DNA of 64,000 nucleotides from an uncultured bacterium (lineage in GTDB: Bacteria > Krumholzibacteriota > Krumholzibacteriia > LZORAL124-64-63). The stretch covers positions 160,001 through 224,000 of the forward strand of contig CAVSZB010000003.1 in the NCBI GenBank assembly GCA_963732385.1, in the 5' to 3' direction. Positions 6,644 through 40,709 of this stretch are shown in pieces. The translations under genes were made by a program, and so were the position numbers. Position 1 is the first letter of the stretch. Each line of letters opens with the position of its first letter. Below the pieces are notes generated by a model. That model made no database searches. It was given only the letters and a program-made list of their open reading frames with translations, and was not told the DNA's origin.

Positions 6644-9064
6644 ATGAAGCACACTTCGCCGTATTTCGCCGCCGCCCCCCGCGCCGTCGCCCGGATCGTC
6701 GGCCTGCTGTTGGCGCTGACCGCCGTCGCCGTGCCTGGCGTCTCCGCGGAAAGGCCAGGCGGGCCGGACTTCATGCCGGCTCATCCAGAGTTGCTCGCGC
6801 GCGTTGGCAAGGCCGGCCTGGTCCGCCTGACCGGCGAGCAGACGCCGGTGGAGATGTACACCGAGTCGCGCGACGCTCGCGCCAAGGCGGGCGCCGACAA
6901 GATCTCCGGCAGCGGCACCTGCCTGGTCATCCTGTGGCAGTTCACGGATCATCCTGCCGATGTGACGGCGCACCCGGCGTCCGCGTACCAGAACCTGCTG
7001 TTCTCGACCGGGACCTGGCCGACGGGGAGCATGAACGACTACTTCCGTGAGGTCAGCTACGGCGCGTTCGGCGTGTCGGGCGCGCCGATCGGCTGGACGA
7101 CCTCCAGCACCACCTACGCGAGCTACACGCCCTACGATTTCACCACGACGCGCACCATGATCCAGAACGCGGTCGCCCAGCTCGATCCCACCGTGAACTT
7201 CGCCCTCTACGACAACGACGGTCCCGACGGCGTGCCGCACTCGGCCGACGATGACGGCTACGTGGACGCGCTCTTCTTCGTCCACGCCGGCCCCGGTCAG
7301 GAGGAGACCGGCAACCCTGTCGACATCTGGTCGCATGCCTGGTCGTTCACGGGCGGTCTGGCCACCGGCGACGGGGTGCGCATCGGGCGCTACTCGGTTG
7401 AGCCGGAGGAGACCGCCAGCGGCCTCCTCGAATCGATCGGCGTCTTCTGCCACGAGTACGGGCACGTGCTCGGTCTGCCCGACCTCTACGACACCGACTA
7501 CAGTTCGGAGGGCGTGGGGGATTGGTGCCTGATGAGCGGCGGTTCCTGGAACGCGCGTCCCGGCGGACAGTGGGGCTCCTGTCCCGCCCACCCGCTGGCG
7601 TGGTGCAAGCAGCAGCTAGGCTGGCTCTCGCCGACGGTCGTTACCACGACGACCGTCGGTGTTACGCTTCCGCCGGCGGAAACGAGTCCGTCGGCGCGCC
7701 GCATCTTCCGCGGTGGCGTCACCACCGGCGACGAATATTTTCTGGTCGAGAATCGGCGCCAACTCGGCTTCGATGCCGGCCTGACCCGGCGCCAGGTGCG
7801 GTTCGGCCTGCCCGCGCCCGAGGGGCTGCTCGTTCTGCACGTTGACGAGTCGTGCATCAGCAACGCCGGCGACACGCACCGCCTCGTCGACGTCGTGGAG
7901 GCCACTCCCTGGTTCACGCTCGCGGGCGCCCCGTTCGAGCATCTCGACGGCGCGGCCGGCTGGGACGAGCCGCGCTGGCTCGACAACGCCAACCGCGGCG
8001 ACAACGGCGATCTCTGGCCCGGCTTCGCGTCCGCCAGCGCCGACACGACCGACTGGCTCGCGCCGCGCAGCCGCGACCGCTTCGCCGCCGACACCGTGCC
8101 GTCCGCCATCGACTACTTCTGCGAGCCGACCGGCATCGCGCTCACCAATATCACGCTCGCCGCCCCCAACGTGCAGGTCGACTTCGAGATCGGGACCGCG
8201 CTCGCCGCCGTGGCCCTGTCATCGGTGGCCGATCTGACCTGGAACTTCGAGAACGGTCCCGAGGACTGGCAGTTCTGCAACAGCTTCGTTCACGTCGATG
8301 AGACGCAGGCGATCGGCTGTGACGGCGCCGCCGGCCTGTGGTTCGGCGTCAACGATCCCAGCTTCGTCTGCCCGCCCGGCTACGGCAACGGCTGGAACGA
8401 CTTCGCCTGGCACACGATCGTCGTGCAGGCCGGCGCCTCCGTGACTCTGCGCCACAAGTTCGACCTGGAGTGGGCCTACGACTACGGCTGGGTAGAGGTG
8501 CGCTGCGCCGGCGATTCAGGAGCGCCTTGGCATGTGGTGGCCACGTTCACCGGCGACAGCGGCGGCTGCGCCCTGGAGTCGTTCGCGATCCCGGTCGCCG
8601 CCATCACCGAATGCGCCGACCCGGAAACCGGTTACGCCAAACTGGACCTGCGCCTGCGCCTGACCAGTGACTCGGGCTGGTCGGCCGAGGACGGGGATTA
8701 CTGCGGCTTCGGCTGGTGGATCGACGAGTTGACGGTCGGCAACGCCATCACAGCCGCCGGGGACGTCCCCGCCGCCGCCGCCTTGACGACCGTGCTTCTG
8801 CCCGCCAGTCCGAATCCGTTCAATCCGCTCACCACGGTCCGTTTCCATATCCCGTCCGGCGCCCGCGACATCCTGCTGACCGTTCATGATCAGCGCGGTC
8901 GCCTCGTGCGCATTCTCGCCGACGGTCCCCTCGCCTCCGGCTGGCTCGAATGCACCTGGGACGGCCGCGGCGCCTCCGGCCAGGCGATGGCCAGCGGCGT
9001 CTATTTCGCGCGCCTGACCGTGGACGGCGAGGTGAAGATCCAGAAGTTGGCGCTGGTGAAATGA
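6644..9064 (+). CDS. Secreted M6 (immune inhibitor A-like) metalloprotease with C-terminal FlgD-Ig/T9SS-like domain
   Basis: 'GSMNDYFREVSYG', 'HEYGHVLGLPDLYD', 'WCLMSGGSW', 'EYFLVENR'; CTD 'PNPFNP...WDG...SGVYF...KLALVK'. Confidence 0.92.
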   Translation: MKHTSPYFAAAPRAVARIVGLLLALTAVAVPGVSAERPGGPDFMPAHPELLARVGKAGLVRLTGEQTPVEMYTESRDARAKAGADKISGSGTCLVILWQFTDHPADVTAHPASAYQNLLFSTGTWPTGSMNDYFREVSYGAFGVSGAPIGWTTSSTTYASYTPYDFTTTRTMIQNAVAQLDPTVNFALYDNDGPDGVPHSADDDGYVDALFFVHAGPGQEETGNPVDIWSHAWSFTGGLATGDGVRIGRYSVEPEETASGLLESIGVFCHEYGHVLGLPDLYDTDYSSEGVGDWCLMSGGSWNARPGGQWGSCPAHPLAWCKQQLGWLSPTVVTTTTVGVTLPPAETSPSARRIFRGGVTTGDEYFLVENRRQLGFDAGLTRRQVRFGLPAPEGLLVLHVDESCISNAGDTHRLVDVVEATPWFTLAGAPFEHLDGAAGWDEPRWLDNANRGDNGDLWPGFASASADTTDWLAPRSRDRFAADTVPSAIDYFCEPTGIALTNITLAAPNVQVDFEIGTALAAVALSSVADLTWNFENGPEDWQFCNSFVHVDETQAIGCDGAAGLWFGVNDPSFVCPPGYGNGWNDFAWHTIVVQAGASVTLRHKFDLEWAYDYGWVEVRCAGDSGAPWHVVATFTGDSGGCALESFAIPVAAITECADPETGYAKLDLRLRLTSDSGWSAEDGDYCGFGWWIDELTVGNAITAAGDVPAAAALTTVLLPASPNPFNPLTTVRFHIPSGARDILLTVHDQRGRLVRILADGPLASGWLECTWDGRGASGQAMASGVYFARLTVDGEVKIQKLALVK

Positions 9065-9195
9065 TATGGAACGACCGCAGTAGGGACGGTGTTGGCCCTC
9101 TCGGCGGCCCTCGGGACGCTGGTCCCGGGGGCCTTTCCATGCGGGCCAGATATCCTACAAAATTCGTTGGACATTAGCGGTCGCTCTTCACTTAT

Positions 9196-27264: not shown

Positions 27265-30200
27265 TTACTTCACCAGCGTCATCTTCTCCATCTTCTCGTA
27301 GCTGCCGGCCTTCAGGCTGTAGAAGTACACGCCCGAGGAGACCGACTGACCGGTGGAGTTGCGGCCGTCCCAGATCACGGAGTGCGTCGTCGCATCCATG
27401 TTCTCGTTCAGCAGCGTCTTCACCAGTTCGCCGCGCACGTTGTAGATCTTCAGCTCAACCTGGCTCTTGGCCGGCAGGGTGAACTCGATCTTCGTGCTCG
27501 GGTTGAACGGGTTCGGGAAGTTCCTGGCCGTGAATACTGCCTCGGGCGTCACGCCCACTGCAGCCCCGCCAGGCAAATGACCGAAGAAGGCCAGAACGTC
27601 CTGCAAAATCTGGGTACGGACCGGGAGCCCGCCGGTCGGGGCGCCGTTCCAGATGTAGCTCAGGTCGTAGGGCATGAAAACGACGCGGGCCGTGTTCGCC
27701 GTGACGTTGTTGTAGACCGCCGCCGCGTACGGGTAGACCCCGAGGGCGCCGGTCGGGCTGGTGAACTGGGCAATCCGGACCGCCGGAGCAACCACGGTGA
27801 TGGCGTCAAAGTCGTTGATGCCGCCCTCACAGCCACCCTGCACCATGTAGGGCTTGGTCAGCACCGGCGCGTCCGCCACGGTGATCGGGCTCACGTGTGG
27901 CGTCAGCTGGCCACCAATGAGCGGCGCGAGGTAGAAGTTGTTGTATGTGACCCCGAACCACTTGTCCCTGAAGGCAACCGCGTTGACGCCGGAGGCCGAC
28001 AGGTCCTGGATGATGTTATCGCCGGTGGCAAAGAAGTTCTTGCCGCCCTGCTGCAGCCAGGAATCCACCACGTAGATATCGTTGCCGGAATCCGCTTTCT
28101 TAATATCCCCGTTGGAGAGCGTAATAGAGCCCAGATTTCCGGGAGTGTAAAGCAACGTGTTGTAACCGGACATCTGCAGCGCGTTCGTCCGGCCGCCGAG
28201 GCCGTTGCCCAGGCCGGAGGACGGGCCGGCATTGCAGTAGATGTCATAGTCGATGCCCTGACGGAAGCCGAGATTGTCCAGGGCAGCGAACCACTCATCC
28301 TGGTTGGCGCGGTCCTGAGAATCGTCCCAGAACAGCAGGTGAGGCTGCCCAACGTCCTTCTCCGCCGTAATCAGCGTCGGCAGGGCGTCAATCTTGTAGA
28401 GTTCATAATAGCGGTACGAGTCGTAGTGCAGGTCGCCAGGGAAATAGGCGAAACCGGTGGTATCCCTGGGCATATGCGTGACACCGGGAACCCCGCCCAC
28501 GGAGTCCTCGGCTCTGAAGTAGTAATGGAAACTGTCGCCGGGGAAGAAGAACCCGGTGTCGGGCAGGTCGAATTGATAGAGGTTCGGCAAGCGGACTGGC
28601 GGAACGGACGTATTCCAGACCGTGTCGCCGACCACGGTGCCGTAGAGATAATTACCGTCCTGGGTAAAGCCGGCCGGAATGGCCGTACGGCAGGTGGAGT
28701 CGAACAGAGGATTCATCTTCATCTTGACGTGCATGGTGGGCCGACCGGTAAGCACAGCACCGTTGCGGACCGCCTTGACTGTCACGACGACAGAGTCGCC
28801 AATGTCGCTCTCGAGAGTGTCGATGTTCTGCGCGATGTCCACGCGCACGGAATTTTTGGTCAGATCCGCATAGTCGATTTCAGGATTTTCCGGCCAGCCG
28901 TCGTTGAACAGGTCCCAGGCACCCAACACCGTAATCGTGGGGCCATAGAAGGGGAAGGCGCACAGCATCACGTTGTCGAAATACGGTGCCGGCGTGTTAT
29001 CGTTGCCGAGATAATCATCGGGCCACGTCTCGTTCACGCCCAGCGAGATCTGGACCGCATTGCGGCCGGCGTTCAGCAGGGCGGTCACCGGAGTTGCATA
29101 CGGAAAGCGGCCATACGAGGCCAGGCCGCCGCCGTAGTACACGGTATTGAAATCCTTCCAGCCGCCGGGCCAGGTGAGCCCGCCGTCCATGGAGGTGCGG
29201 ATGCCAAAGAAGTAGAAGATCCCGTTGGAGAGCGGAAGGTGGGTGTAATTGTCCCAAGTGTAATTGGCGCCGTCGTAACCCCCATCAGCACCCCCGGGCC
29301 ATTCCATTACAGGGGACCAGACGTTGTTGTTGATCGCGTAAGTGTCGCCGGCGAGACCACCGGTCGTCGTCACGCCCCAGCCACCGGGGCCGTAGTTCCA
29401 GGTCGTGCACTGGGTGCCGCCCGTTCCGGGGACCACGATGCCATCGTCGATGAACGCCATTTGCGGTGTGCTGTTGGTGTTGCACTCGTCGGCGTCCCCC
29501 AGCAACGGCCACACCTTGTGGAATTCGCCGACATACGGCGGCTTGACGTTGACCCAGTGCACCGGATCGCCGGGCTGGAAAGTATCATAAGTCTGCCGCA
29601 CCTCTGCGTGCAGTTTGCCGAACAGCACCTCGATGTTGTCGAGCTGCGCGAGGCCATTGCTGGGCCAGAAGCAGTCGCCGTCGGACCAGCCGCCATCGGA
29701 AAAACCTAGCCAGCGCAGGTGGATCTCGTTGTTGAGGTCCCCGACGTAGCTGTCCGGTTCTACGGTGAAGGCCACTGCCACAGCCACGGCGACATTCACG
29801 CCGTCCCAGGCGCTCGTCGGTTTCGCCTGTTCCATAACGCCGAGCTTCTCGACCTGGAGAATCAGATAGTCGTAGCGCTTCTCGGAGTTGGAGTTGAAAA
29901 TCGCCCTCACGGTGACGTCCGTGGGCACGGTATTGTCCACGACCTGGCCGTACCAATCGAGCCAAAGGTTGTAGTTGTTGTCGTAGCCTTCGAGCGGATC
30001 CTCTGGACTGCAGGATCCGGAGAAAACCTCACCGCACCACATGGCGAGGTTGGCGGCGCCGAGTGGATCCAGGTTCGCGCAATTGTAGTCGGAGATGTGC
30101 CAGATGGCCGTCATGTTCGTATAGTCTTTGCCGGTCCACCCCTGGTCGTCCGCAACCCCCAAAGCAGTCTGGAACTTGCCGTCCAGCCGGGCCGGGCCGC

Positions 30201-30396
30201 CCATGATATAAACTGTATCGGCCGCAGCCTTGCCGCTGCTTATGGGCCCGCCAGAAAGTATGCTGGTGTCGGCGCCCCTGGCGTCAAATATGTGACGCTG
30301 GGCCTGTTGACTGTCATCCCTGGAAGAATCGTCAGCGATAGCGAGGCTGGCGAAGAGCGCCAGAGACAGACATACGGTAAATGTGAGTCTCTTCAT
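27265..30396 (-). CDS. Large secreted protein with FlgD-Ig/T9SS-like CTD, paralogue 1 of 3 (function unknown; possible surface-layer protein)
   Basis: Signal peptide MKRLTFTVCLSLALFASLAIA; ~1040 aa; CTD 'NFPNPFNPSTKIEF...WDGRN...SGVYFY...KMTLVK'. Confidence 0.85.
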   Translation of the reverse strand: MKRLTFTVCLSLALFASLAIADDSSRDDSQQAQRHIFDARGADTSILSGGPISSGKAAADTVYIMGGPARLDGKFQTALGVADDQGWTGKDYTNMTAIWHISDYNCANLDPLGAANLAMWCGEVFSGSCSPEDPLEGYDNNYNLWLDWYGQVVDNTVPTDVTVRAIFNSNSEKRYDYLILQVEKLGVMEQAKPTSAWDGVNVAVAVAVAFTVEPDSYVGDLNNEIHLRWLGFSDGGWSDGDCFWPSNGLAQLDNIEVLFGKLHAEVRQTYDTFQPGDPVHWVNVKPPYVGEFHKVWPLLGDADECNTNSTPQMAFIDDGIVVPGTGGTQCTTWNYGPGGWGVTTTGGLAGDTYAINNNVWSPVMEWPGGADGGYDGANYTWDNYTHLPLSNGIFYFFGIRTSMDGGLTWPGGWKDFNTVYYGGGLASYGRFPYATPVTALLNAGRNAVQISLGVNETWPDDYLGNDNTPAPYFDNVMLCAFPFYGPTITVLGAWDLFNDGWPENPEIDYADLTKNSVRVDIAQNIDTLESDIGDSVVVTVKAVRNGAVLTGRPTMHVKMKMNPLFDSTCRTAIPAGFTQDGNYLYGTVVGDTVWNTSVPPVRLPNLYQFDLPDTGFFFPGDSFHYYFRAEDSVGGVPGVTHMPRDTTGFAYFPGDLHYDSYRYYELYKIDALPTLITAEKDVGQPHLLFWDDSQDRANQDEWFAALDNLGFRQGIDYDIYCNAGPSSGLGNGLGGRTNALQMSGYNTLLYTPGNLGSITLSNGDIKKADSGNDIYVVDSWLQQGGKNFFATGDNIIQDLSASGVNAVAFRDKWFGVTYNNFYLAPLIGGQLTPHVSPITVADAPVLTKPYMVQGGCEGGINDFDAITVVAPAVRIAQFTSPTGALGVYPYAAAVYNNVTANTARVVFMPYDLSYIWNGAPTGGLPVRTQILQDVLAFFGHLPGGAAVGVTPEAVFTARNFPNPFNPSTKIEFTLPAKSQVELKIYNVRGELVKTLLNENMDATTHSVIWDGRNSTGQSVSSGVYFYSLKAGSYEKMEKMTLVK

Positions 30397-30897
30397 GTTT
30401 TCCCCCAAACGTTGATCAAATCAACGCAATCAAGGTTGCGCACACGTCACCGGCCGCCACTCACTCAGCCGGGCGCAATTCAAGGGAGGCCAAAGTTCAT
30501 TCCCGCACAGTTGCGCGGCGCAAAGCCGGGCGAGAAATGAAGCTTACCTCCTTCGAATTGGAACGTGGGCGTATGGAACTTAGCAACAGTACCGAATGTC
30601 AAGTGCGCGGACGGCTGAGAGAGTGGAACCCAAAGACAGCGCGCATTGCACGAACTTTTGCCCATGAGCCACTACATGAGTCACAAAGGTGAGATTGGCC
30701 TCCTTTTCGTTTTGTGTGTTTGGTGCGGTCGCAAAAGCATCCTTCTCCAAACCCTCCCTAACCTCAATGCCAGGCCAAGACCGGAATGGTCCAGACAGCA
30801 GCGCGGCACTGACGATAGGCCCAGCAGCAGGTCGGCGAGGATGGTATTGCAGAGTCTTCCCGTCGGGCTTTGCCCGCGGGAATCAGCGAGGATCCTC

Positions 30898-30927
30898 AGA
30901 TTACCAGATTGCCCTTCCCTCTGTCAA
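30898..30927 (-). promoter_or_regulatory. sigma70-like promoter in the conserved upstream spacer of paralogue 1
   Basis: TTGACA-N18-TAATCT with extended -10 TG; equivalents at 36345-36373 and 40300-40329. Confidence 0.55.
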
Positions 30928-31047
30928 CGGTCCCCTGCATGGAAGTGGGGAATAACTTCACTGCTTATTATTAAACTTGCCGTTTCGCCATATATAAGAA
31001 CCTTTTAGGTTTGGCATTGTCTCGAGTTGTGAAATCCCCGGATCGGG

Positions 31048-31112
31048 CGCACCAACAGAAGCGGCCCCCCCGTGCGGGGGGGCCGCTCCCTTCAGACTCG
31101 GCCGTGAAGCAA
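31048..31112. repeat. ~65-bp direct repeat copy 2 (terminator of paralogue 2, now separated from it by the IS)
   Basis: Matches copy 1; hairpin 31060-31087. Confidence 0.9.
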
Positions 31113-31220
31113 CCGGATTAGACATAATGGAACGGCTGGGCCCCTCGGGTATCGTGTGTTAGTCCGCACGGACCAGGGACACTAGGGAGCCGAAACTCCC
31201 GCTCACGAAAGGACCCAGCC

Positions 31221-32336
31221 ATGACACACGATAGCACAGCGACCGTTTGGGTGGGCATGGATGTTCACCAGGAGTCCATCACCGCGGCGATCCTCTTTGG
31301 AGACAAGGACATCCCGGAGATTGTCCGGTTGCCAGGGGACCTCAACGCGGTTCGCCGGCTCTTCCGCCGCTTGACCAAGCAGGGCTCCCCGCGGGCATGC
31401 TACGAGGCCTCGGGTGCAGGCTACGTCCTGCAGCGGGCCCTGGACCACGATGGGTTCCAGTGCGAGGTGATCGCCCCGAGTCTGATCCCCCGCTGCCCGG
31501 GCGATCACCGCAAGACCGATCGCCTGGATGCCGTGCGCTTGGCGCGCATGTATCGCAGCGGCCATCTGCGGGCGGTGACGATACCAGATGAGGAGCAAGA
31601 GGCGGTACGCCAGCTCGTGCGATGCCGACTGTCGCTGCAGCGTCAGATCGTGCGCAGCAAGCATCGGATCGTCCGGGTGCTGGCTACCCACGGACATCGT
31701 TTCACCGGGACCAAAAGCAATTGGACGAAGCAGCATCGCGCCTGGCTGGCCACGTTGCGCCGCGAGATGACGGGCCCGCTGCAGACGGTCCTGGCCTACG
31801 ACCTCGACCACCTGGAGTACCTCGAGTCTCAGCAGCGGTCGCTCGACGCCGAGATCGAGCAGTGGTCCTGTCGCGAGCCCTGGCGGGCGACCGTCGAGGC
31901 GCTGCAGTGCTTCCGCGGCATCAAGACCCTGACGGCGATGACGTTGGTCACCGAGATCGGAGACATCCGTCGCTTCAGTCACCCGGACCGGCTGATGGGG
32001 TACACGGGGTTGGTGTCAAAGGAGCACTCCAGCGGCGAGCAACAACATCGTGGTTCGATCACCAAGGCGGGCAACACATTCCTAAGACGGATCCTAGTCG
32101 AAGCCGCTTGGCACTACCAGTACAGGGTAGGCTCGACCTTGATCCTCGATCGCCGCCGGATGGGTCAGGATCCTGAAATGGTCGCGATCGCCGTGAAGGC
32201 CCAGCATCGACTCGGCAGGCGATTCCATCACCTGGAGAAGACGAAGCATCGCAACAAGGTCGCCGTCGCGGTGGCCCGTGAACTGAGTGGATTCGTGTGG
32301 GCCGCGATGTGGGTCGCAGCCACGAAGCAACACTAG
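31221..32336 (+). CDS. IS110 family transposase/recombinase (DEDD RuvC-like + Tnp20 domain)
   Basis: 'VGMDVH', 'YEAS', 'KTDRLDA' DEDD residues; 'GIKTLTAMTLVTEIGD', 'HSSG', 'GSITKAGN', 'AVARE'. Confidence 0.95.
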   Translation: MTHDSTATVWVGMDVHQESITAAILFGDKDIPEIVRLPGDLNAVRRLFRRLTKQGSPRACYEASGAGYVLQRALDHDGFQCEVIAPSLIPRCPGDHRKTDRLDAVRLARMYRSGHLRAVTIPDEEQEAVRQLVRCRLSLQRQIVRSKHRIVRVLATHGHRFTGTKSNWTKQHRAWLATLRREMTGPLQTVLAYDLDHLEYLESQQRSLDAEIEQWSCREPWRATVEALQCFRGIKTLTAMTLVTEIGDIRRFSHPDRLMGYTGLVSKEHSSGEQQHRGSITKAGNTFLRRILVEAAWHYQYRVGSTLILDRRRMGQDPEMVAIAVKAQHRLGRRFHHLEKTKHRNKVAVAVARELSGFVWAAMWVAATKQH

Positions 32337-32346
32337 GACGCTGAGT

Positions 32347-32507
32347 GGAGCAGGGACCGGTCAGGGGAATCCTCGTTTGAAGTATGCGGCAGGCCATGAG
32401 CTGGACCCGCGGTGTTAGACGGAGGTCACCCCGAGACGGACAGAATTGTGTGCGGTAACCAACCCGCGGATATCAGTCTGATCAACCGTCGTTGCAGTCC
32501 CTGCTCC
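32347..32507 (+). ncRNA. Putative bridge/seekRNA of the IS1111-type element
   Basis: 11-bp enclosing stem GGAGCAGGGAC/GTCCCTGCTCC; two TGCGG...CCGCG stem modules with internal loops matching the target (TGAAGTA) and the predicted circle junction (ATATCAG). Confidence 0.7.
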
Positions 32508-32526
32508 CAACAACCAGGCGTAAGAA

Positions 32527-32550
32527 GGGCCCCGGCTGTCGCCGGGGCCC
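32527..32550 (-). terminator. IS-borne hairpin oriented to stop transcription entering from the right flank
   Basis: GGGCCCCGGC-TGTC-GCCGGGGCCC, followed by TTCTTA on the minus strand. Confidence 0.6.
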
Positions 32551-32591
32551 CCGAGGAGCGCACTAATCAACGTTTGACTAGCCGTTCCATA

Positions 32592-35500
32592 TCACTTCAC
32601 CAGCGTCATCTTCTCCGTCTTCTCGTAGCTGCCGGCCTTCAGGCTGTAGAAGTACACGCCCGAGGAGACCGACTGACCGGTGGAGTTGCGGCCGTCCCAG
32701 ATCACGGAGTGCGTCGTCGCATCCATGTTCTCGTTCAGCAGCGTCTTCACCAGTTCACCGCGCACGTTGTAGATCTTCAGCTCAACCTGGCTCTTGGCCG
32801 GCAGGGTGAACTCGATTTTCGTGCTCGGGTTGAAAGGATTCGGGAAGTTCCTGGCCGTGAACACTGCCGCGGGCGTCACGCCCACTGCAGCCCCGCTAGG
32901 CAACTTGCCGAAGAAGGCCAGAACGTCCATAAGGATCTGGGTACGGACCGCGATCCCGCCGGTCGGGGCCCCGTCCCAGATGATGCTCAGGTCGCAGGGC
33001 ATGAAAACGACGCGAGCCGTGTTGTCTGTGACGTTGTTGTAGACCGCCGCCGCGTACGGGTAGGCCCCGAGGGCGCCGGTCGGGCTGGTGAACTGGGCAA
33101 TCCGGACCGCCGGAGCGAGCGCGGTGACGGCGTCAAAGTCACTGATGAAGTTTGCACAGCCACCCTGCACCAGGTAGGACTTGGTCAGCACCGGCGCGTC
33201 CGCCACGGTGATCGGGCTCACGTGTGGCGTCAGCTGGCCACCAATAAGCGGCGCGAGGTTGAAGCCGTTGTATGCGACCTTGAACCACTTGTCTCTGAAC
33301 AGGACCGCGTTGACGCCGGAGCGTGACAGATCCTGGATGAGGTTATCTCCGGTGGCAAAGAAGTTCTTGCCGCCCTGATTCAGCCAGGCATCCAGACAGG
33401 CGATATCGTTGCCGGGATCGCCTTTTGTGGTGCTGGATATCGTATACGCGTCCAGGCTTCCTGAAGTGTAAAGCAACGTGTTGTAACCGGACATTTGCAG
33501 CGCGTTCGTCCGGCCGCCGAGGCCGTTGCCCAGGCCGGAGGACGGGCCGGCATTGCAGTAAATGTCATAGTCGATGCCCTGGCGGAAGCCGAGATTGTCC
33601 AGGGAAGAGAACCATTCATTCTGGTTGCTGCGGTCCTGGGAATCGTCCCAGAACAGCACTTCGGGCTGGACAAAGGTCGTATCACCCTTGTCCGGTGATA
33701 TCGTCATCGACATCGTCGGCAGAGCGTCAATCTTCCAGAGTTCATAATAGCAGTACGAGTCGTAGTGCAGGTCGCCCGGGAAATAGGAGAAGCCGGTGGT
33801 ATCTGTCGGCATGATCGTGACACCCTCAACCCCGCCCACGATGTCCGAGGCTCTGAAATAGTAGTGGAAACTGTCGCCGGGGAAGAAGAACCCGGTGTCG
33901 GGCAGGTCGAACTGGAAGAGGTTCGGCAGGCGAACCGGCGGAATGGACTCATTCCAGACCGTGTCGCCCAGCACGGTACCGTAGAGATAGGGACCGTCCT
34001 GGGTAAAGCCGGCCGGAATGGCCGTGCGGTAGGCGTCGAACAGGGGATTCATCTTCATCTTGACGTGCATGGTGGGCTGACCGGTAAGCACGGCGCCGTT
34101 GCGGACCGCCTTGACTGTCACGACGACAGAGTCGCCCGGAGTGTTGAGCACGTCGTCGGTGTTCCCGGCGATATCCACGCGCACCCAGTTCTGGGCCAGA
34201 TCCGTATAGTTGATTTCGGCATTTTCGGGCCAGCCGTCGTTGAACATGTTCCAATCACCATTGAACATGATCGCGGGCCCGCCGAAGGGGAAGGTGAGCA
34301 GCCTCACGTTGTCGAAATACGGTGCCGGCGTGTTGTCGTTGTTGGTATATTTATCGAGCCACGGCTCAGTTACGCCCAGCAGGATTTGGACCTTGTCGCG
34401 GCCGGAGTTCAGCAGGGAGGTCACTGCCTCGCCGTGCACGTAGTACTCGGCCAGAAGGCCGCCGTACCAGACGGTATTGAAATCCTTCCAGCCGCCGGGC
34501 CAGGTGAGACCGCCGTCCTTGGAGGTGCGGATGCCCCAGAAGTAGAAGATGCCGTTTTCGATCGGAAGGTGGGCGTAATTGTCCCACATTAAATAGCAGC
34601 CGTCGAAGCCTCCATCAGCGCCCCCGGGCCAATCCATAGGAGGTGACCAGACGCTGTTGTTGATCCCGTAAAGATCGCCGGCGAGACCACCGGTTGTCGT
34701 CACGCCCCAGCCACCGGGGCCGTAGTTCCAGGTCGTGCATTGAGTGCCGCCCGTCCCGGGGACCACAATGCCGTCGTCGATGAACGCCATTTGCGGCGTG
34801 TTGTTGCTGGCGCACACGTCGGCGTCCCCCAGCAACGGCCACACCTTGTGGAAATCTCCGACATACGGCGGTTTGACGTTGACCCAGTGCACCGGATCGC
34901 CGGGCTGGAAAGTATCATAAGTCTGCCGCACCTCAGCGTGCAGCTTGCCGAACAGCACCTCGATGTTGTCGAGCTGCGCGAGGCCATCGCTGGGCCAATA
35001 GCAGTCGTCGTCGGACCAGGCGCCGTCGGAATAACCGAGCCAGCGCAGGTGGATCTCGTTGTTGAGGTCCCCGACGTAGCAGTCCGGTTCTACGGTGAAG
35101 GCCACTTCCACAGCCACGGCGACATTCACGCCGTCCCAGGCGCTCGTCTTGCCCGCCTGTTCCATAACGCCGAGCTTCTCGACCTGGAGAATCAGATAGT
35201 CGTAGCGCTTCTCGGAATTGGAGTTGAAAATCGCTCTTACGGTGACGTCCGTGGCCACGGTATTGCTCGCGACCTGGCCGTACCAATCGAGCCAAAGGTT
35301 GTAGCCGTTAGCGTAGCCTTCGACCGGGTCCTCTTCGGTGCAGCTCGCTGCAAAAGTCTCGCCGCACCACATGGCGAGGTTGGCGGCGCCGAGGGGATCC
35401 AGGTTCGCGCAATTGTAGTCGGAGATGTGCCAAAAGGCCGTCATGTTCGTGATGTCCTTGCCGGTCCATCCCTGATCGTCCGGCACCAATGCCTTGGTTG

Positions 35501-35732
35501 AAGTCTGGAACTTGCCGTCCAGCCGGTCCGGGCCGCCCATAATATAAACTGTATCGGCCGCGGCTTTGCCGCTGCTCACGGGCCCGCCAGTAAGCGCGCT
35601 GTTGATGGCGCCCCTGGCGTTAAACGGGTAAAGCCGGCCCTGTCCGCTGTCATCCCTGGAAGAATCGCCAGCGATCGCGAGGCTGGCGAAGAGCGCCAGA
35701 GACAGACATACGGAAAATGTGAGTCTCCTCAT
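32592..35732 (-). CDS. Large secreted FlgD-Ig/T9SS-like CTD protein, paralogue 2 of 3
   Basis: 1046 aa, colinear with paralogues 1 and 3; TGA stop lies at the IS junction. Confidence 0.85.
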   Translation of the reverse strand: MRRLTFSVCLSLALFASLAIAGDSSRDDSGQGRLYPFNARGAINSALTGGPVSSGKAAADTVYIMGGPDRLDGKFQTSTKALVPDDQGWTGKDITNMTAFWHISDYNCANLDPLGAANLAMWCGETFAASCTEEDPVEGYANGYNLWLDWYGQVASNTVATDVTVRAIFNSNSEKRYDYLILQVEKLGVMEQAGKTSAWDGVNVAVAVEVAFTVEPDCYVGDLNNEIHLRWLGYSDGAWSDDDCYWPSDGLAQLDNIEVLFGKLHAEVRQTYDTFQPGDPVHWVNVKPPYVGDFHKVWPLLGDADVCASNNTPQMAFIDDGIVVPGTGGTQCTTWNYGPGGWGVTTTGGLAGDLYGINNSVWSPPMDWPGGADGGFDGCYLMWDNYAHLPIENGIFYFWGIRTSKDGGLTWPGGWKDFNTVWYGGLLAEYYVHGEAVTSLLNSGRDKVQILLGVTEPWLDKYTNNDNTPAPYFDNVRLLTFPFGGPAIMFNGDWNMFNDGWPENAEINYTDLAQNWVRVDIAGNTDDVLNTPGDSVVVTVKAVRNGAVLTGQPTMHVKMKMNPLFDAYRTAIPAGFTQDGPYLYGTVLGDTVWNESIPPVRLPNLFQFDLPDTGFFFPGDSFHYYFRASDIVGGVEGVTIMPTDTTGFSYFPGDLHYDSYCYYELWKIDALPTMSMTISPDKGDTTFVQPEVLFWDDSQDRSNQNEWFSSLDNLGFRQGIDYDIYCNAGPSSGLGNGLGGRTNALQMSGYNTLLYTSGSLDAYTISSTTKGDPGNDIACLDAWLNQGGKNFFATGDNLIQDLSRSGVNAVLFRDKWFKVAYNGFNLAPLIGGQLTPHVSPITVADAPVLTKSYLVQGGCANFISDFDAVTALAPAVRIAQFTSPTGALGAYPYAAAVYNNVTDNTARVVFMPCDLSIIWDGAPTGGIAVRTQILMDVLAFFGKLPSGAAVGVTPAAVFTARNFPNPFNPSTKIEFTLPAKSQVELKIYNVRGELVKTLLNENMDATTHSVIWDGRNSTGQSVSSGVYFYSLKAGSYEKTEKMTLVK

Positions 35733-36561: not shown

Positions 36562-39500
36562 TCACTTCACCAGCGTCATCTTCTCCATCTTCTCGTAGCT
36601 GCCGGCCTTCAGGCTGTAGAAGTACACGCCCGAGGAGACCGACTGACCGGTGGAGTTGCGGCCGTCCCAGATCACGGAGTGCGTCGTCGCATCCATGTTC
36701 TCGTTCAGCAGCGTCTTCACCAGTTCACCGCGCACGTTGTAGATCTTCAGCTCAACCTGGCTCTTGGCCGGCAGGGTGAACTCGATTTTCGTGCTCGGGT
36801 TGAAAGGATTCGGGAAGTTCCTGGCCGTGAACACTGCCTCGGGCGTCACGCCCACTGCAGCCCCGCCAGGCAAATTGCCGAAGAAGGCCAGAACGTCCAT
36901 AAGGATCTGGGTACGGACCGCGATCCCGCCGGTCGGGGCGCCGTCCCAGATATTGCTCAGGTCGTAGGGCATGAAAACGACGCGAGCCGTGTTTTCTGTG
37001 ACGTTGTTGTAGACCGCCGCCGCGTACGGGTAGGCCCCGAGGGCGCCGGTCGGGCTGGTGAACTGGGCAATCCGGACCGCCGGAGCAAGCGCGGTGACGG
37101 CGTCAAAGTCACTGATGTAGTTTGCACAGCCACCCTGCACCAGGTAGGACTTGGTAAGCACAGGCGCGCCCGCGACGGTGATCGGGCTCACGTGCGGTGC
37201 AACCTGGCCGCCGATGAGCGGCGCGAGGTTGAAGCCGTTGTATGCGACCTTGAACCACTTGTCTCTGAACAGGACCGCATTGACGCCGGAGCGTGAGATG
37301 TCCTGGATGAGGTTATCTCCGGTGGCAAAGAAGTTCTTGCCGCCCTGATTCAGCCAGGCATCCAGACAGGCGATATCGTTGCCGGGATCGCCTTTTGTGG
37401 TGCTGGATATCGTATACGCGTCCAGGCTTCCTGAAGTGTAAAGCAGCGTGTTGTAACCGGACATTTTCAGCGCGTTCGTCCGGCCGCCGAGGCCGTTGCC
37501 CAGGCCGGAGGACGGGCCGGCATTGGCGTAAATGTCATAGTCGATGCCCTGGCGGAAGCCGAGATTGTCCAGGGAAGAGAACCATTCATTCTGGTTGCCG
37601 CGGTCCGCGGAATCGTCCCAGAACAGCAGGTGAGGCTGCCCAACGTCCTTCACCGCCGTGATCATCGTCGGCAGAGCGTCGACCTTCCAGACTTCATAAT
37701 AGCGGTACGAGTCGTAGTGCAGATCGCCAGGGAAATAGGAGAAACCGGTGGAATCCCTGGGCATTTGCGAGACACCGACAACCCCGCCCACGGTGTCCTC
37801 GGCTCTGATGTAGTAGTGGAAACTGTCGCCGGGGAAGAAGAACCCGGTGTCGGGCAGGTCGAACTGGAAGAGGTTCGGCAGGCGAACCGGCGGGATGGAC
37901 TCATTCCAGACCGTGTCGCCCAGCACGGTACCGTAGAGATAGGGACCGTCCTGGGTAAAGCCGGCCGGAATGGCCGTGCGGTAGGCGTCGAACAGGGGAT
38001 TCATCTTCATCTTGACGTGCATGGTGGGCGGACCGGTAAGCACGGCGCCGTTGCGGACCGCCTTGACTGTCACGACGACAGAGTCGCCCGGAGTGTTGGC
38101 AACGTCGTCGGTGTTCCCGGCGATGTCCACGCGCACCCAGTTCTGGGCCAGATCCGTATAGTTGATTTCGGCATTTTCGGGCCAGCCGTCGTTGAACAAG
38201 GCCCACTCACCCGTCACCGACAGCGCGGGCCCCCCGAAGGGGTAAACGGCCAGCGCCACGTTGTCGAAGTACGGCGACGGCGTGTTATCGTTGCTGAGAT
38301 ATTTATCGAGCCAGGGCTCAGTCACGCCCAACGAGAGCTGGACCGCGTTGCGGCCGGAGTTCAGCAGGGAGGTCACTCCATACCAGTCGCGGTAGTACTC
38401 ACCCAGGACGCCGCCGTAGATCACGGTATTGAAATCCTTCCAGCCTCCGGGCCAGGTGATGCCGCCGTCTTTGGAAGTGCGGATGCCCCAGAAGTAGAAG
38501 ATCCCGTTATCGATCGGGAGGTGGTTGTAAACGTCCCACAGGAAAGTGGCGCCGTCGTAGCCCCCATCAGCGCCCCCGGGCCAGGCCATTACGGGGGAAA
38601 TGACGCTGTTGTTGATCCCGTAAAGATCGCCGGCGAGACCACCGGTTGTCGTCACGCCCCAGCCACCGGGGCCGTAGTTCCAGGTCGTGCATTGAGTGCC
38701 GCCCGTCCCGGGGACCACAATGCCGTCGTCGATGAACGCCATTTGCGGCGTGTTGTTGCTAAGACACACGTCGGCGTCCCCCAGCAACGGCCACACCTTG
38801 TGGAATTCGCCGACATACGGCGGTTTGACGTTGACCCAGTGCACCGGATCGCCGGGCTGGAAAGTATCATAAGTCTGCCGCACCTCAGCGTGCAGCTTGC
38901 CGAAGAGCACCTCGATGTTGTCGAGCTGCGCGAGGCCATCGCTGGGCCAATAGCAGTCGCCGTCGGACCAGCCGGTGTCGGAATAACCGAGCCAGCGCAG
39001 GTGGATCTCGTTGTTGAGATCCCCGACGTAGCTGTCCGGTTCTACGGTGAAGGCCACTTCCACAGCCACGGCGACATTCACGCCGTCCCAGGCGCTCGTC
39101 TTGCCCGCCTGTTCCATAACGCCGAGCTTCTCGACCTGGAGAATCAGATAGTCGTAGCGCTTCTCGGAATTGGAGTTGAAAATCGCTCTTACGGTGACGT
39201 CCGTGGCCACGGTATTGCTCGCGACCTGGCCGTACCAATCGAGCCAAAGGTTATAGTTGTTATCGTAGCCTTCGACCGGATCCACTTCACTGCAGGATCC
39301 GGAGAAAACCTCGCCGCACCACATGGCGAGGTTGGCGGCGCCGAGGGGATCCAGGTTCGCGCAATTGTAGTCGGAGATGTGCCAGGTTGCCGTCATGTTC
39401 GTGTCGTCATTGCCGGTCCATCCCTGATCGTCAGGCACCAATGCCTTGGTCGAAGACTCGAACTTTCCGTCCAGCCGGTTCGGTCCGCCCATGATATAAA

Positions 39501-39684
39501 CTGAATCGACGGCGGCCTTGCCGCTGCTCACGGGCCCGCCAGTAAGCGCGCTGTTGTTGGCGCCCCTGGCGTTAAACGGGTAAAGCCGGGCCTGTCCGCT
39601 GTCATCCCTGGAAGAATCGTCGGCGATCGCGAGGCTGGCGAAGAGCGCCAGAGACAGACATACGGTAAATGTGAGTCTCTTCAT
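36562..39684 (-). CDS. Large secreted FlgD-Ig/T9SS-like CTD protein, paralogue 3 of 3
   Basis: 1040 aa, same signal peptide and CTD as paralogue 1. Confidence 0.85.
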   Translation of the reverse strand: MKRLTFTVCLSLALFASLAIADDSSRDDSGQARLYPFNARGANNSALTGGPVSSGKAAVDSVYIMGGPNRLDGKFESSTKALVPDDQGWTGNDDTNMTATWHISDYNCANLDPLGAANLAMWCGEVFSGSCSEVDPVEGYDNNYNLWLDWYGQVASNTVATDVTVRAIFNSNSEKRYDYLILQVEKLGVMEQAGKTSAWDGVNVAVAVEVAFTVEPDSYVGDLNNEIHLRWLGYSDTGWSDGDCYWPSDGLAQLDNIEVLFGKLHAEVRQTYDTFQPGDPVHWVNVKPPYVGEFHKVWPLLGDADVCLSNNTPQMAFIDDGIVVPGTGGTQCTTWNYGPGGWGVTTTGGLAGDLYGINNSVISPVMAWPGGADGGYDGATFLWDVYNHLPIDNGIFYFWGIRTSKDGGITWPGGWKDFNTVIYGGVLGEYYRDWYGVTSLLNSGRNAVQLSLGVTEPWLDKYLSNDNTPSPYFDNVALAVYPFGGPALSVTGEWALFNDGWPENAEINYTDLAQNWVRVDIAGNTDDVANTPGDSVVVTVKAVRNGAVLTGPPTMHVKMKMNPLFDAYRTAIPAGFTQDGPYLYGTVLGDTVWNESIPPVRLPNLFQFDLPDTGFFFPGDSFHYYIRAEDTVGGVVGVSQMPRDSTGFSYFPGDLHYDSYRYYEVWKVDALPTMITAVKDVGQPHLLFWDDSADRGNQNEWFSSLDNLGFRQGIDYDIYANAGPSSGLGNGLGGRTNALKMSGYNTLLYTSGSLDAYTISSTTKGDPGNDIACLDAWLNQGGKNFFATGDNLIQDISRSGVNAVLFRDKWFKVAYNGFNLAPLIGGQVAPHVSPITVAGAPVLTKSYLVQGGCANYISDFDAVTALAPAVRIAQFTSPTGALGAYPYAAAVYNNVTENTARVVFMPYDLSNIWDGAPTGGIAVRTQILMDVLAFFGNLPGGAAVGVTPEAVFTARNFPNPFNPSTKIEFTLPAKSQVELKIYNVRGELVKTLLNENMDATTHSVIWDGRNSTGQSVSSGVYFYSLKAGSYEKMEKMTLVK

Positions 39685-40449
39685 GTTTCCCCCTAACGTT
39701 GATTCGATTCAACGCAATCAAGGTTGCGCACACGTCACCGGCTGCCACTTACTAACTCAGCCGGGAGCAAATCAAGGGAGGCCAAAGTTCATCCCCGCAC
39801 AGTTTCGCGGCGCAAAGCCGGGCGAGAAATGAAGCTTATCTCCTTCAAGCTGGAACGTGGGCGAGTGGAACTTGGCAACAGTGCAACAGTACCGAATGTC
39901 AAGTGCGCGGACGACTGAGAGAGTGGAGCCCAGGGACAGCGCGCATCGCACGAACTTTTGCCCATGAGCCACTACATGAGTCACAAAGGTGAGATCGCCT
40001 CCTCTGAATATTTTGGTGGAGAATGATGCAATTTGGAGCAGCAGCAGCAGAAAGGGCTTGGGCGGGGGCATATCGACCCGAACCATCGACCACGGCTTCG
40101 CCAATCCCAAAGCCAAGCCGAACCGCTCGGTCGCAATCACACCCATCTCCAAGACCTCTCTAACCTCAATGCCAGGCCAAGACCGGAATGGTCCAAACAG
40201 CGGCGCAGCACTGACGATAGGCTCAGCAGCAGGTCGGCGAGGATGGTATTGCAGAGTCTTCCCGTCGGACTTTGCCAACGGGAAGCAGCGAGGATACTCA
40301 GATTACCAGATTGCCCTTCCCTCTGTCAACGGTCCTCTACATGGAAGTGGGGAATAATCTCACCGTCTGTTATCAAATTTGCCCCTTCGCTATATATGCA
40401 AACCTCTTAGGTTGGGCATTGTCTCGAGTTGTGAAATCCCCGGATCGGG

Positions 40450-40514
40450 CGCACCAACAGAAGCGGCCCCCCCGTGCGGGGGGGCCGCTCCCTTCAGACT
40501 CGGCCGTGAAGCAA
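40450..40514. repeat. ~65-bp direct repeat copy 4, with no associated paralogue
   Basis: Matches copy 1 up to GTGAAGCAA, then unrelated sequence. Confidence 0.88.
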
Positions 40515-40709
40515 AGGGAAATGGATCGAGCAGCACTTCAGGCAGAAGATAGGAATTTCAACCGCCCGGTCCGCCTTTTCGCTCCCTGTCGGTTGGACGG
40601 TTACGCTCCGGCGTTCTCGGCGGCATGACCCAATTGTGTCTGGCAGCAGTCTCCAGTATTGGCTGGCGGCGCGCGGGAAAAGGGACGGTCCGCAATCGCT
40701 GCCGTCACC

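Follow-up and report, generated by a model that had tools for sequence, protein, structure and literature searches.

Introduction

The closest described systems are the seekRNA or bridge-RNA elements of the IS1111 group, among them ISEc11, ISKpn4, ISPst6 and ISPa11 (PMC11187229 and PMC11208160, both available in part). With these the insertion sequence analyzed here shares a DEDD recombinase, 11-bp subterminal repeats, terminal extensions of 7 + 3 bp, a long non-coding region after the transposase gene, a junction promoter, insertion without target duplication, a fixed orientation and a target matched by a guide. The targets described for the group, in the same partly available sources, are attC sites, REP sequences, transposon ends and a short linear site; the present target, in contrast, is formed by the last codons and the stop of a multi-copy gene family, where the stop is rebuilt and a hairpin faces the host gene.

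Two other elements are close in their way of targeting. ISEc21 (PMC11187229, the part available) resembles the present element in the RNA-guided recognition of a conserved coding motif, the codons around the catalytic Asp of IS3 transposases, and in the natural redirection of the guide in a relative; it differs in belonging to the IS110 group, in carrying its RNA upstream and in breaking the gene of another element, whereas the present one spares the host frame. IS621 (PMC11208158, available in part) likewise has a core with an invariant T, a 9-nt left and a short right target guide and handshake bases, but its RNA lies in the left end, its targets are REP sequences and it has no stop-codon logic. 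RNA-guided targeting of a coding motif is already known from ISEc21 (PMC11187229), and safe-site targeting from the elements at REP and attC sites. In the literature searched, no description was found of IS110 or IS1111 elements that target stop codons or T9SS tails; the supplements and sequence logos of PMC11187229 and PMC11208160 could hold one, and the main text of a 2026 survey preprint (10.64898/2026.08.14.744561), the part available, contains neither 'stop codon' nor 'terminator'.

The element was found in a window of 64,000 nucleotides, the whole stretch of DNA that was analyzed, from an uncultured bacterium of the Krumholzibacteriota. Tn7, at attTn7/glmS, and the integrases that restore 3' ends recognize a conserved gene end and insert there harmlessly; their sites are read by protein and are usually single-copy, while the present element appears to be RNA-read and has about 100 paralogous tails before it. 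IS900 and IS901 target translation starts. They too are IS110-family elements at a translation signal common to many genes, but on the start side, not the stop side, and they are not bound to one protein family. Both come from Mycobacterium avium; their membership of the IS110 family and a hed ORF have been described (PMC8141618, available in part).

Results

An IS1111-type element at the end of a T9SS-tail gene

The right end under study belongs to an IS1111-type element of the IS110 family, of which the genome carries three identical copies (Table 1). One base is shared by its two junctions and can be assigned to position 31120 or to 32594. The subterminal repeats are perfect over 11 bp, in keeping with the definition of the IS1111 group (about 11-13 bp; PMC11187229, the part available), and outside them lie extensions of 7 bp on the left (31120-31126) and 3 bp on the right (32591-32593), as in that group. 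Two further traits of the group were found: the non-coding region downstream of the transposase gene is about 257 nt long, against 100 nt on the left, and the joined ends would read TTGACT-17 nt-CATAAT, a predicted junction promoter.

The recombinase contains a DEDD RuvC domain (PF01548) and a Tnp domain (PF02371) with the catalytic serine of the IS110 family; S271 is aligned with S241 of IS621. It scored 239 bits against NF033542 (cut-off 140) and is distant from the solved recombinases (E about 1e-6 to 1e-7). No target-site duplication was found: all three copies and the empty-allele joints have one shared core base, with the invariant T. Judged from its sequence, the element fits every IS110 and IS1111 feature checked.

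No relative was found in the viral contigs searched. The circle joint was absent from the contigs of eight sequencing runs, a result uninformative either way on circle formation. In a contig of run X2, position 31147 of the window, in the left end, is joined to 32342, in the bridge-RNA region, with 10 letters between them; this could be a non-autonomous mini-element, with a short side of only 29 letters.

The insertion lies among three tandem paralogues of approximately 1,045 aa on the minus strand, each with a FlgD_ig / Por_Secre_tail domain and an MTLVK end. The tails exceed the cut-offs of PF18962 and TIGR04183; outside the tail no family match was obtained for any of the three. T9SS genes were detected in the host genome (SprA/Sov above the cut-off, a PorU-like protein just under it), and the proteins of the tail family are likely secreted. 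Between 27265 and 40520 each paralogue has a repeated upstream region of 700-800 nt and the same hairpin. A fourth copy of this hairpin lies at 40447-40522, and two further close paralogue tails occur on contigs C4 and C7.

According to the original prediction, the element had inserted within the stop codon of paralogue 2, leaving the protein unchanged and moving the native terminator by 1.5 kb. These points were borne out, and every coordinate of that prediction proved correct: the gene now ends in GTG AAG TGA, with the stop at 32594-32592; as the T of the stop precedes the crossover and the element adds GA, the reading frame and the protein sequence are kept; and 1,474 bp of element now separate the gene from its native 3' region and the GC hairpin there. 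The insertion would be expected to be harmless in vivo.

Table 1. Positions in the window of the element, its predicted parts and the neighbouring genes.
Feature	Position	Strand	Remarks
Insertion sequence, IS1111-type, 1,474 bp	31120..32593	+	3 identical copies; empty-allele joint skips 1,474 nt
Left subterminal inverted repeat, 11 bp	31127..31137	+	
Right subterminal inverted repeat, 11 bp	32580..32590	+	
-10 box, predicted circle-junction promoter	31123..31128	+	predicted from sequence
-35 box, predicted circle-junction promoter	32574..32579	+	predicted from sequence
IS110-family DEDD recombinase, 371 aa	31221..32336	+	D14, E62, D100, D103
Predicted bridge/seek RNA, two internal loops, long right end	32347..32507	+	fold; compensatory changes
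Predicted left target guide, 9 nt	32376..32384	+	positions 3-9 match T-N-AA[G/A]-TA
Predicted right target guide and handshake bases	32414..32420	+	complementary to core and first bases past crossover; IS621 analogy
Predicted right donor guide	32470..32476	+	complementary to donor core and element right end
Terminator-like hairpin, facing host gene	32520..32550	-	hairpin 32527-32550, T-rich tail 32526-32520
New stop TGA	32592..32594	-	T is the shared core base, GA from the element
Host paralogue 2, 1,046 aa, C-terminal FlgD_ig / T9SS type A sorting domain	32592..35732	-	ends MTLVK, frame intact
Host paralogue 1, unoccupied	27265..30408	-	ends GTG AAG TAA
Host paralogue 3, unoccupied	36562..39684	-	ends GTG AAG TGA
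Displaced native 3' end	31060..31120	-	old TAA 31120-31118 and native hairpin 31060-31087
Possible relic right end behind CTD gene ending LALVK	9050..9140	+	12 nt identical to element end

Relatives insert at the stop codons of tail genes

Relatives with E of 1e-40 or better were found in 46 of the 208 genomes of the class; a search at the level of the phylum gave only genomes of this class. The collection comprised 209 loci, 194 of them with RNA, and 113 hits with a located right junction and enough upstream sequence, which correspond to 105 unique sites. Three extra right ends (L009, L046, L070) were placed by motif. The tree was built from the collected relatives with at least 225 aligned residues (69 rows), shorter rows such as L088 being left out. 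It is unrooted, with no outgroup, so the grouping of the two tail-targeting clades described below does not establish separate origins.

The clade of the element itself (26 rows, support 100/100) was found mostly at the ends of genes with this tail (CTD genes): by a profile made from the tails of the host genome, 34 of the 39 scorable sites, in 27 genomes, were at CTD stops, and a further 2 sites had flanks too short to score. Four of the 39 (L041, L042, L066, L070) lie off tail stops and one, L088, is at the other tail type. Of the genome copies, 3/3 are at Lys-stop ends of CTD genes. L066 belongs to the clade, comes from a contig labelled Gemmatimonadota and lacks the whole target-binding loop.

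A second clade, approximately 40% identical (7 rows, support 100/100), was found at stops of genes with a [W/F]G..K..[Y/F]R tail in 8/8 sites, L007 included. In the host genome, 18 ORFs carry a tail of this kind, and one second-clade element is present as an intact copy. At G000:C6:53880-55400 (L029) a second IS1111-type element, 41% identical to the first, occupies the stop of a W[G/S]..K..[Y/F]R protein. No NCBIfam model matched this tail, which appears to be another, so far unnamed C-terminal signal. In L088 (genome G167) the N-terminal part of the recombinase is nearer to the CTD clade (48-57% against 30-47% identity), while its guide and its insertion site fit the second tail type; a natural retargeting or guide swap is possible.

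Among the metagenome sites listed (54 unique, from 120 stretches), none was at either tail type, and most show no gene end. Two have a recognizable one: L118 lies at the end of an outer-membrane barrel gene (PF25183) and L126 at the end of a TIGR03435 gene, where the match reaches the end of the model; both have a matching guide. At L136, L157 and L179 the guides also match, and the gene ends carry what we take to be a barrel-like terminal Phe motif; these three host genes gave no family match in the libraries tried.

A predicted guide RNA follows the last codons of the target genes

The right-end RNA folds with z -4.5, and compensatory changes were seen in 7 of 19 consensus pairs among 38 relatives; Rfam gave no match in 30400-32700. 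Its predicted left target guide corresponds to the core T with the seven bases that precede it and the one that follows, and positions 3-9 read as a hydrophobic codon, Lys and the first two bases of a stop. The right donor guide matches in 7/7 positions; the left donor guide does so only loosely, and its register is ambiguous.

Within the CTD set (31 sites) an average of 5.35 of 7 guide positions could pair, against 4.71 after shuffling (0 of 5,000 shuffles; kinship ignored). The same register in 36 related elements with unrelated targets gave 5.31 of 7 pairable positions against 3.36 shuffled. Positions 1-2 pair in only 39-45% of the sites; position 3, which stands for the middle T of the penultimate codon, does so in 31/31 CTD sites. 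In 28 of the 31, the guide triplet fits the final residue of the protein (23 Lys, 5 Arg). At the sites with both junctions the last guide base follows the stop type in 27/27 cases: G with TGA (4/4), A with TAG or TAA (23/23). One exception was seen outside this set, a near-identical element with an unchanged guide in a TGA allele (run X3; X6 has this junction too). Since related elements do not count as independent, the P values are overstated. By these observations the predicted guides covary with the last codon and with the stop type; by analogy with IS621, the guide RNA probably pairs with its target.

Copy 1 had been described as a perfect match to the guide, which holds for guide positions 3-9 and not for the whole 9 nt. 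The TGA of copy 3 does mismatch the guide, as was also stated, but this gives no protection: in 2 of the 8 runs a near-identical element lies in a TGA allele of this gene family.

A longer match, extending the guide by the preceding CUCG, was considered and rejected, because CUCG is a conserved stem arm that is also present in elements with unrelated targets. A guide variant with G to C at position 4 (window 32379) was seen in near-identical elements (runs X2 and X5; L031) and fits a CAAG target in genome G128.

Guide pairing and the choice of sites in the host genome

The host genome has 277 sites compatible with the guide: 223 in genes, 35 intergenic, 8 at other stops and 11 at CTD stops. 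All three copies are at T9SS/FlgD-tail stops, against 11/277 of the compatible sites (P 4.7e-5). By crude gene calls, guide-compatible stops end 11 of 96 CTD genes and 8 of 2,727 other genes. The guide 5-mer ranked first of 1,022 for the TAR stops of CTD genes (9/43, including 2 occupied sites restored to the count). Sites matching all nine guide positions number 53 in the genome, and none is a CTD stop.

According to the original prediction, the guide may exploit the LVK-stop tail as a multi-copy safe harbour. Targeting of the Lys-stop end stands, but the guide cannot be its only cause: it fits 277 sites, 223 of them inside genes, so base pairing alone cannot yield the pattern observed. With approximately 270 other matches, most of them in genes, selection against insertions that are disruptive or polar, a second cue or both would be needed.

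A second cue is an alternative that we regard as possible, though well short of probable. The recombinase itself would prefer CTD ends, through a terminator hairpin, transcription or flanks read by the protein, and survival bias would be small. This could explain why 3/3 copies at tail stops is still a skewed result once every in-gene site is left out (P 0.007 under the guide-derived pattern); under a tighter consensus, itself derived from the observed sites, P was 0.055. A downstream hairpin was present at 15 of 26 occupied sites and at 60 of 266 guide-compatible non-CTD sites. Among CTD genes, however, a selecting role of the native hairpin found no support: it was no commoner at occupied than at unoccupied stops (15/26 and 48/93, P 0.45), and 11 of the 26 occupied sites have no hairpin by the threshold used. 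A target stem-loop adds specificity for ISPpu10 (10.64898/2026.03.19.712850, available in part); in that system the stem overlaps the left target, whereas the hairpins considered here are 10-55 nt away.

A terminator-like hairpin faces the host gene

A hairpin of the element at 32527-32550, with a minus-strand T-rich tail about 40 nt after the new stop, had also been predicted and was found as described: a 10-bp stem with a 4-nt loop, inward-facing, starting 41 nt past the stop and followed by the tail TTCTTAC. The segment folds with z -3.6. A simple terminator scan called neither this hairpin nor the native ones, and a custom hairpin count was therefore used; for this element it counts two T's of the tail as part of the stem, and the tail is therefore scored with 2 T. 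By this count, 26 of 38 distinct tail-targeting elements and 7 of 60 others have a strong hairpin in the stretch from the RNA to the right repeat. It may end transcription of the host gene.

A less probable reading, which we consider unlikely but worth weighing, is that the hairpin is an RNA-processing or insulation element that serves only the insertion sequence. With 4 T in 7 the tail is short, the terminator scan did not report the hairpin, and 12 of the 38 tail-targeting elements manage without a hairpin. Against this, tails with at least 4 T in 8 were found on the strand of the host gene in 17/23 and 6/8 rows and on the strand of the element in 0/23 and 0/8. The hairpin tails behind CTD genes of the host, which is GC-rich, are equally weak, with at least 5 T in only 2/61. 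In addition, one relic right end, at C5:377574, is preserved exactly up to the tail.

This relic is one of three orphan right ends past the stops of tail genes in the host genome, the others being at C4:12184 and C8:445420. Those at G000:C5:377574 and G000:C4:12100-12190 lie at stops of W[G/S]..K..[Y/F]R proteins; that at G000:C8:445414-445500 is a degenerate first-clade right end behind a CTD gene ending RQLSLVK (E 8.7e-5). A weak relic candidate was seen on the minus strand of G000:C7 (offset 283778), where a shorter stretch behind a CTD gene ending MSLVK resembles the element end and a hairpin is present. In the window, the candidate at 9050..9140 has a hairpin with a short T tail and no transposase. 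Its 12-mer (window 9062) occurs only four times in the genome; the end profile did not detect it.

The stop-forming end is older than the targeting of tail genes

The junctions place the crossover at T|AR: the shared core is the T of the stop, and the element makes the GA. All three genome copies lie opposite in orientation to their CTD gene, and their reconstructed empty sites read AAG TAA, AAG TAG and AAA TAG, all at LVK gene ends. The right end is constant (ATCA); on the left, the base two positions before the junction differs from target to target. If the crossover were moved by one base, the empty sites of the other two copies would become TGG, a sense codon. These observations assign the T to the core and the GA to the element. 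In contigs of 3 of the 8 runs an empty allele was found that skips exactly 1,474 nt with one shared letter; these may be paralogues instead. IS621 is cut on the top strand after an invariant T and tolerates GT and AT cores (PMC11208158, the part available), and the T|A cut and the GT/AT core tolerance of the present element agree with this.

Both junctions are known for 27 tail sites, and in 27/27 of these the crossover in the reconstructed empty site lies at a stop (19 TAG, 4 TAA, 4 TGA). In the set of relatives a stop is present after insertion at 41/41 tail sites, a count biased by the right-end finder, whose matrix was trained mostly on TGA-type ends. The TGA-forming end was, with the same finder, also present in 60/60 located ends at non-tail sites, where TAG or TAA stands at the cut in 24/33 targets. 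Since elements with other targets have the same end, stop regeneration is a pre-existing property of a wider subgroup, and a reading of the TGA end as a special adaptation was discarded. The stop-forming end predates the targeting; the guide is what the clade tuned.

The same two properties of the wider subgroup, the T|AR cut and the TGA end, make insertions at stop codons harmless by default. They could be taken to mean that the guide is untuned, that insertion occurs at any match and that only harmless copies persist, and the location of most compatible sites in genes is in line with this. We consider such pure survivorship improbable. It leaves unexplained that the guides of the clade stay on a hydrophobic-Lys/Arg-stop end while swapping synonymous and Lys/Arg codons, that the guide 5-mer is the best one for CTD stops, that 43 other non-coding or stop sites are unused, and that related elements are at CTD stops in 0/54 of the metagenome sites listed.

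The caveat of the original prediction, that the stop was already TGA with the crossover one base further and nothing regenerated, can be set aside as very improbable: although paralogue 3 has a TGA and shares AT with the element end, the shift would leave the other two copies with TGG and a tail that is read through, in relatives sharing these ends the left junction reads TTA, CTA or TCA and the right one always CA, and the predicted donor guide matches the CA form.

Discussion

We favour the reading, with a probability of roughly 0.8, that this is an IS1111-type element which inserts in the stops of genes with T9SS/FlgD tails and rebuilds the stop, its bridge RNA likely aiming at the last codons and selection likely purging insertions within genes. 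A guide tuned to the last codons of the family would let insertions leave the host proteins unchanged.

The steps can be put in order. On excision, joining of the ends in a circle would create the TTGACT-17-CATAAT sequence, which would act as a promoter. The RNA of the right end would then pair, as in IS621, with T-N-(Lys/Arg codon)-T|A[A/G] and some of the bases that follow, a pairing to which the covariation of guides and targets points. Strand exchange takes place just behind the T of the stop, and with the GA that the element contributes the protein stays the same. The hairpin 41 nt further on may end the host transcript and could shield the bridge RNA and the recombinase gene from antisense RNA.

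A broader account, to which we give even odds, is that a single subgroup with a stop-spelling end has repeatedly re-aimed its guide at the conserved C-terminal codons of large families of paralogues: those of T9SS/FlgD, [W/F]G..K..[Y/F]R, outer-membrane beta-barrel and TIGR03435 proteins. Sorting signals would then serve as multi-copy safe harbours, a terminator facing the host gene would have been acquired in the process, and stop-plus-terminator ends would be left behind as permanent 3' ends of host genes.

The clade would represent a natural bridge-RNA guide that evolves under protein-level constraint and that follows, throughout a bacterial class, both the type of stop and the codons for a secretion signal. 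It offers dozens of natural guide-target pairs, with their wobble and mismatch tolerance, in a recombinase group of high engineering interest. It also poses a clean test of how a guide of 8-9 bases avoids hundreds of in-gene sites, by selection or by a second cue. Finally, these elements suggest how mobile DNA may come to replace the terminators of its host, and they point to a natural design for insertions that stay silent at the ends of genes.
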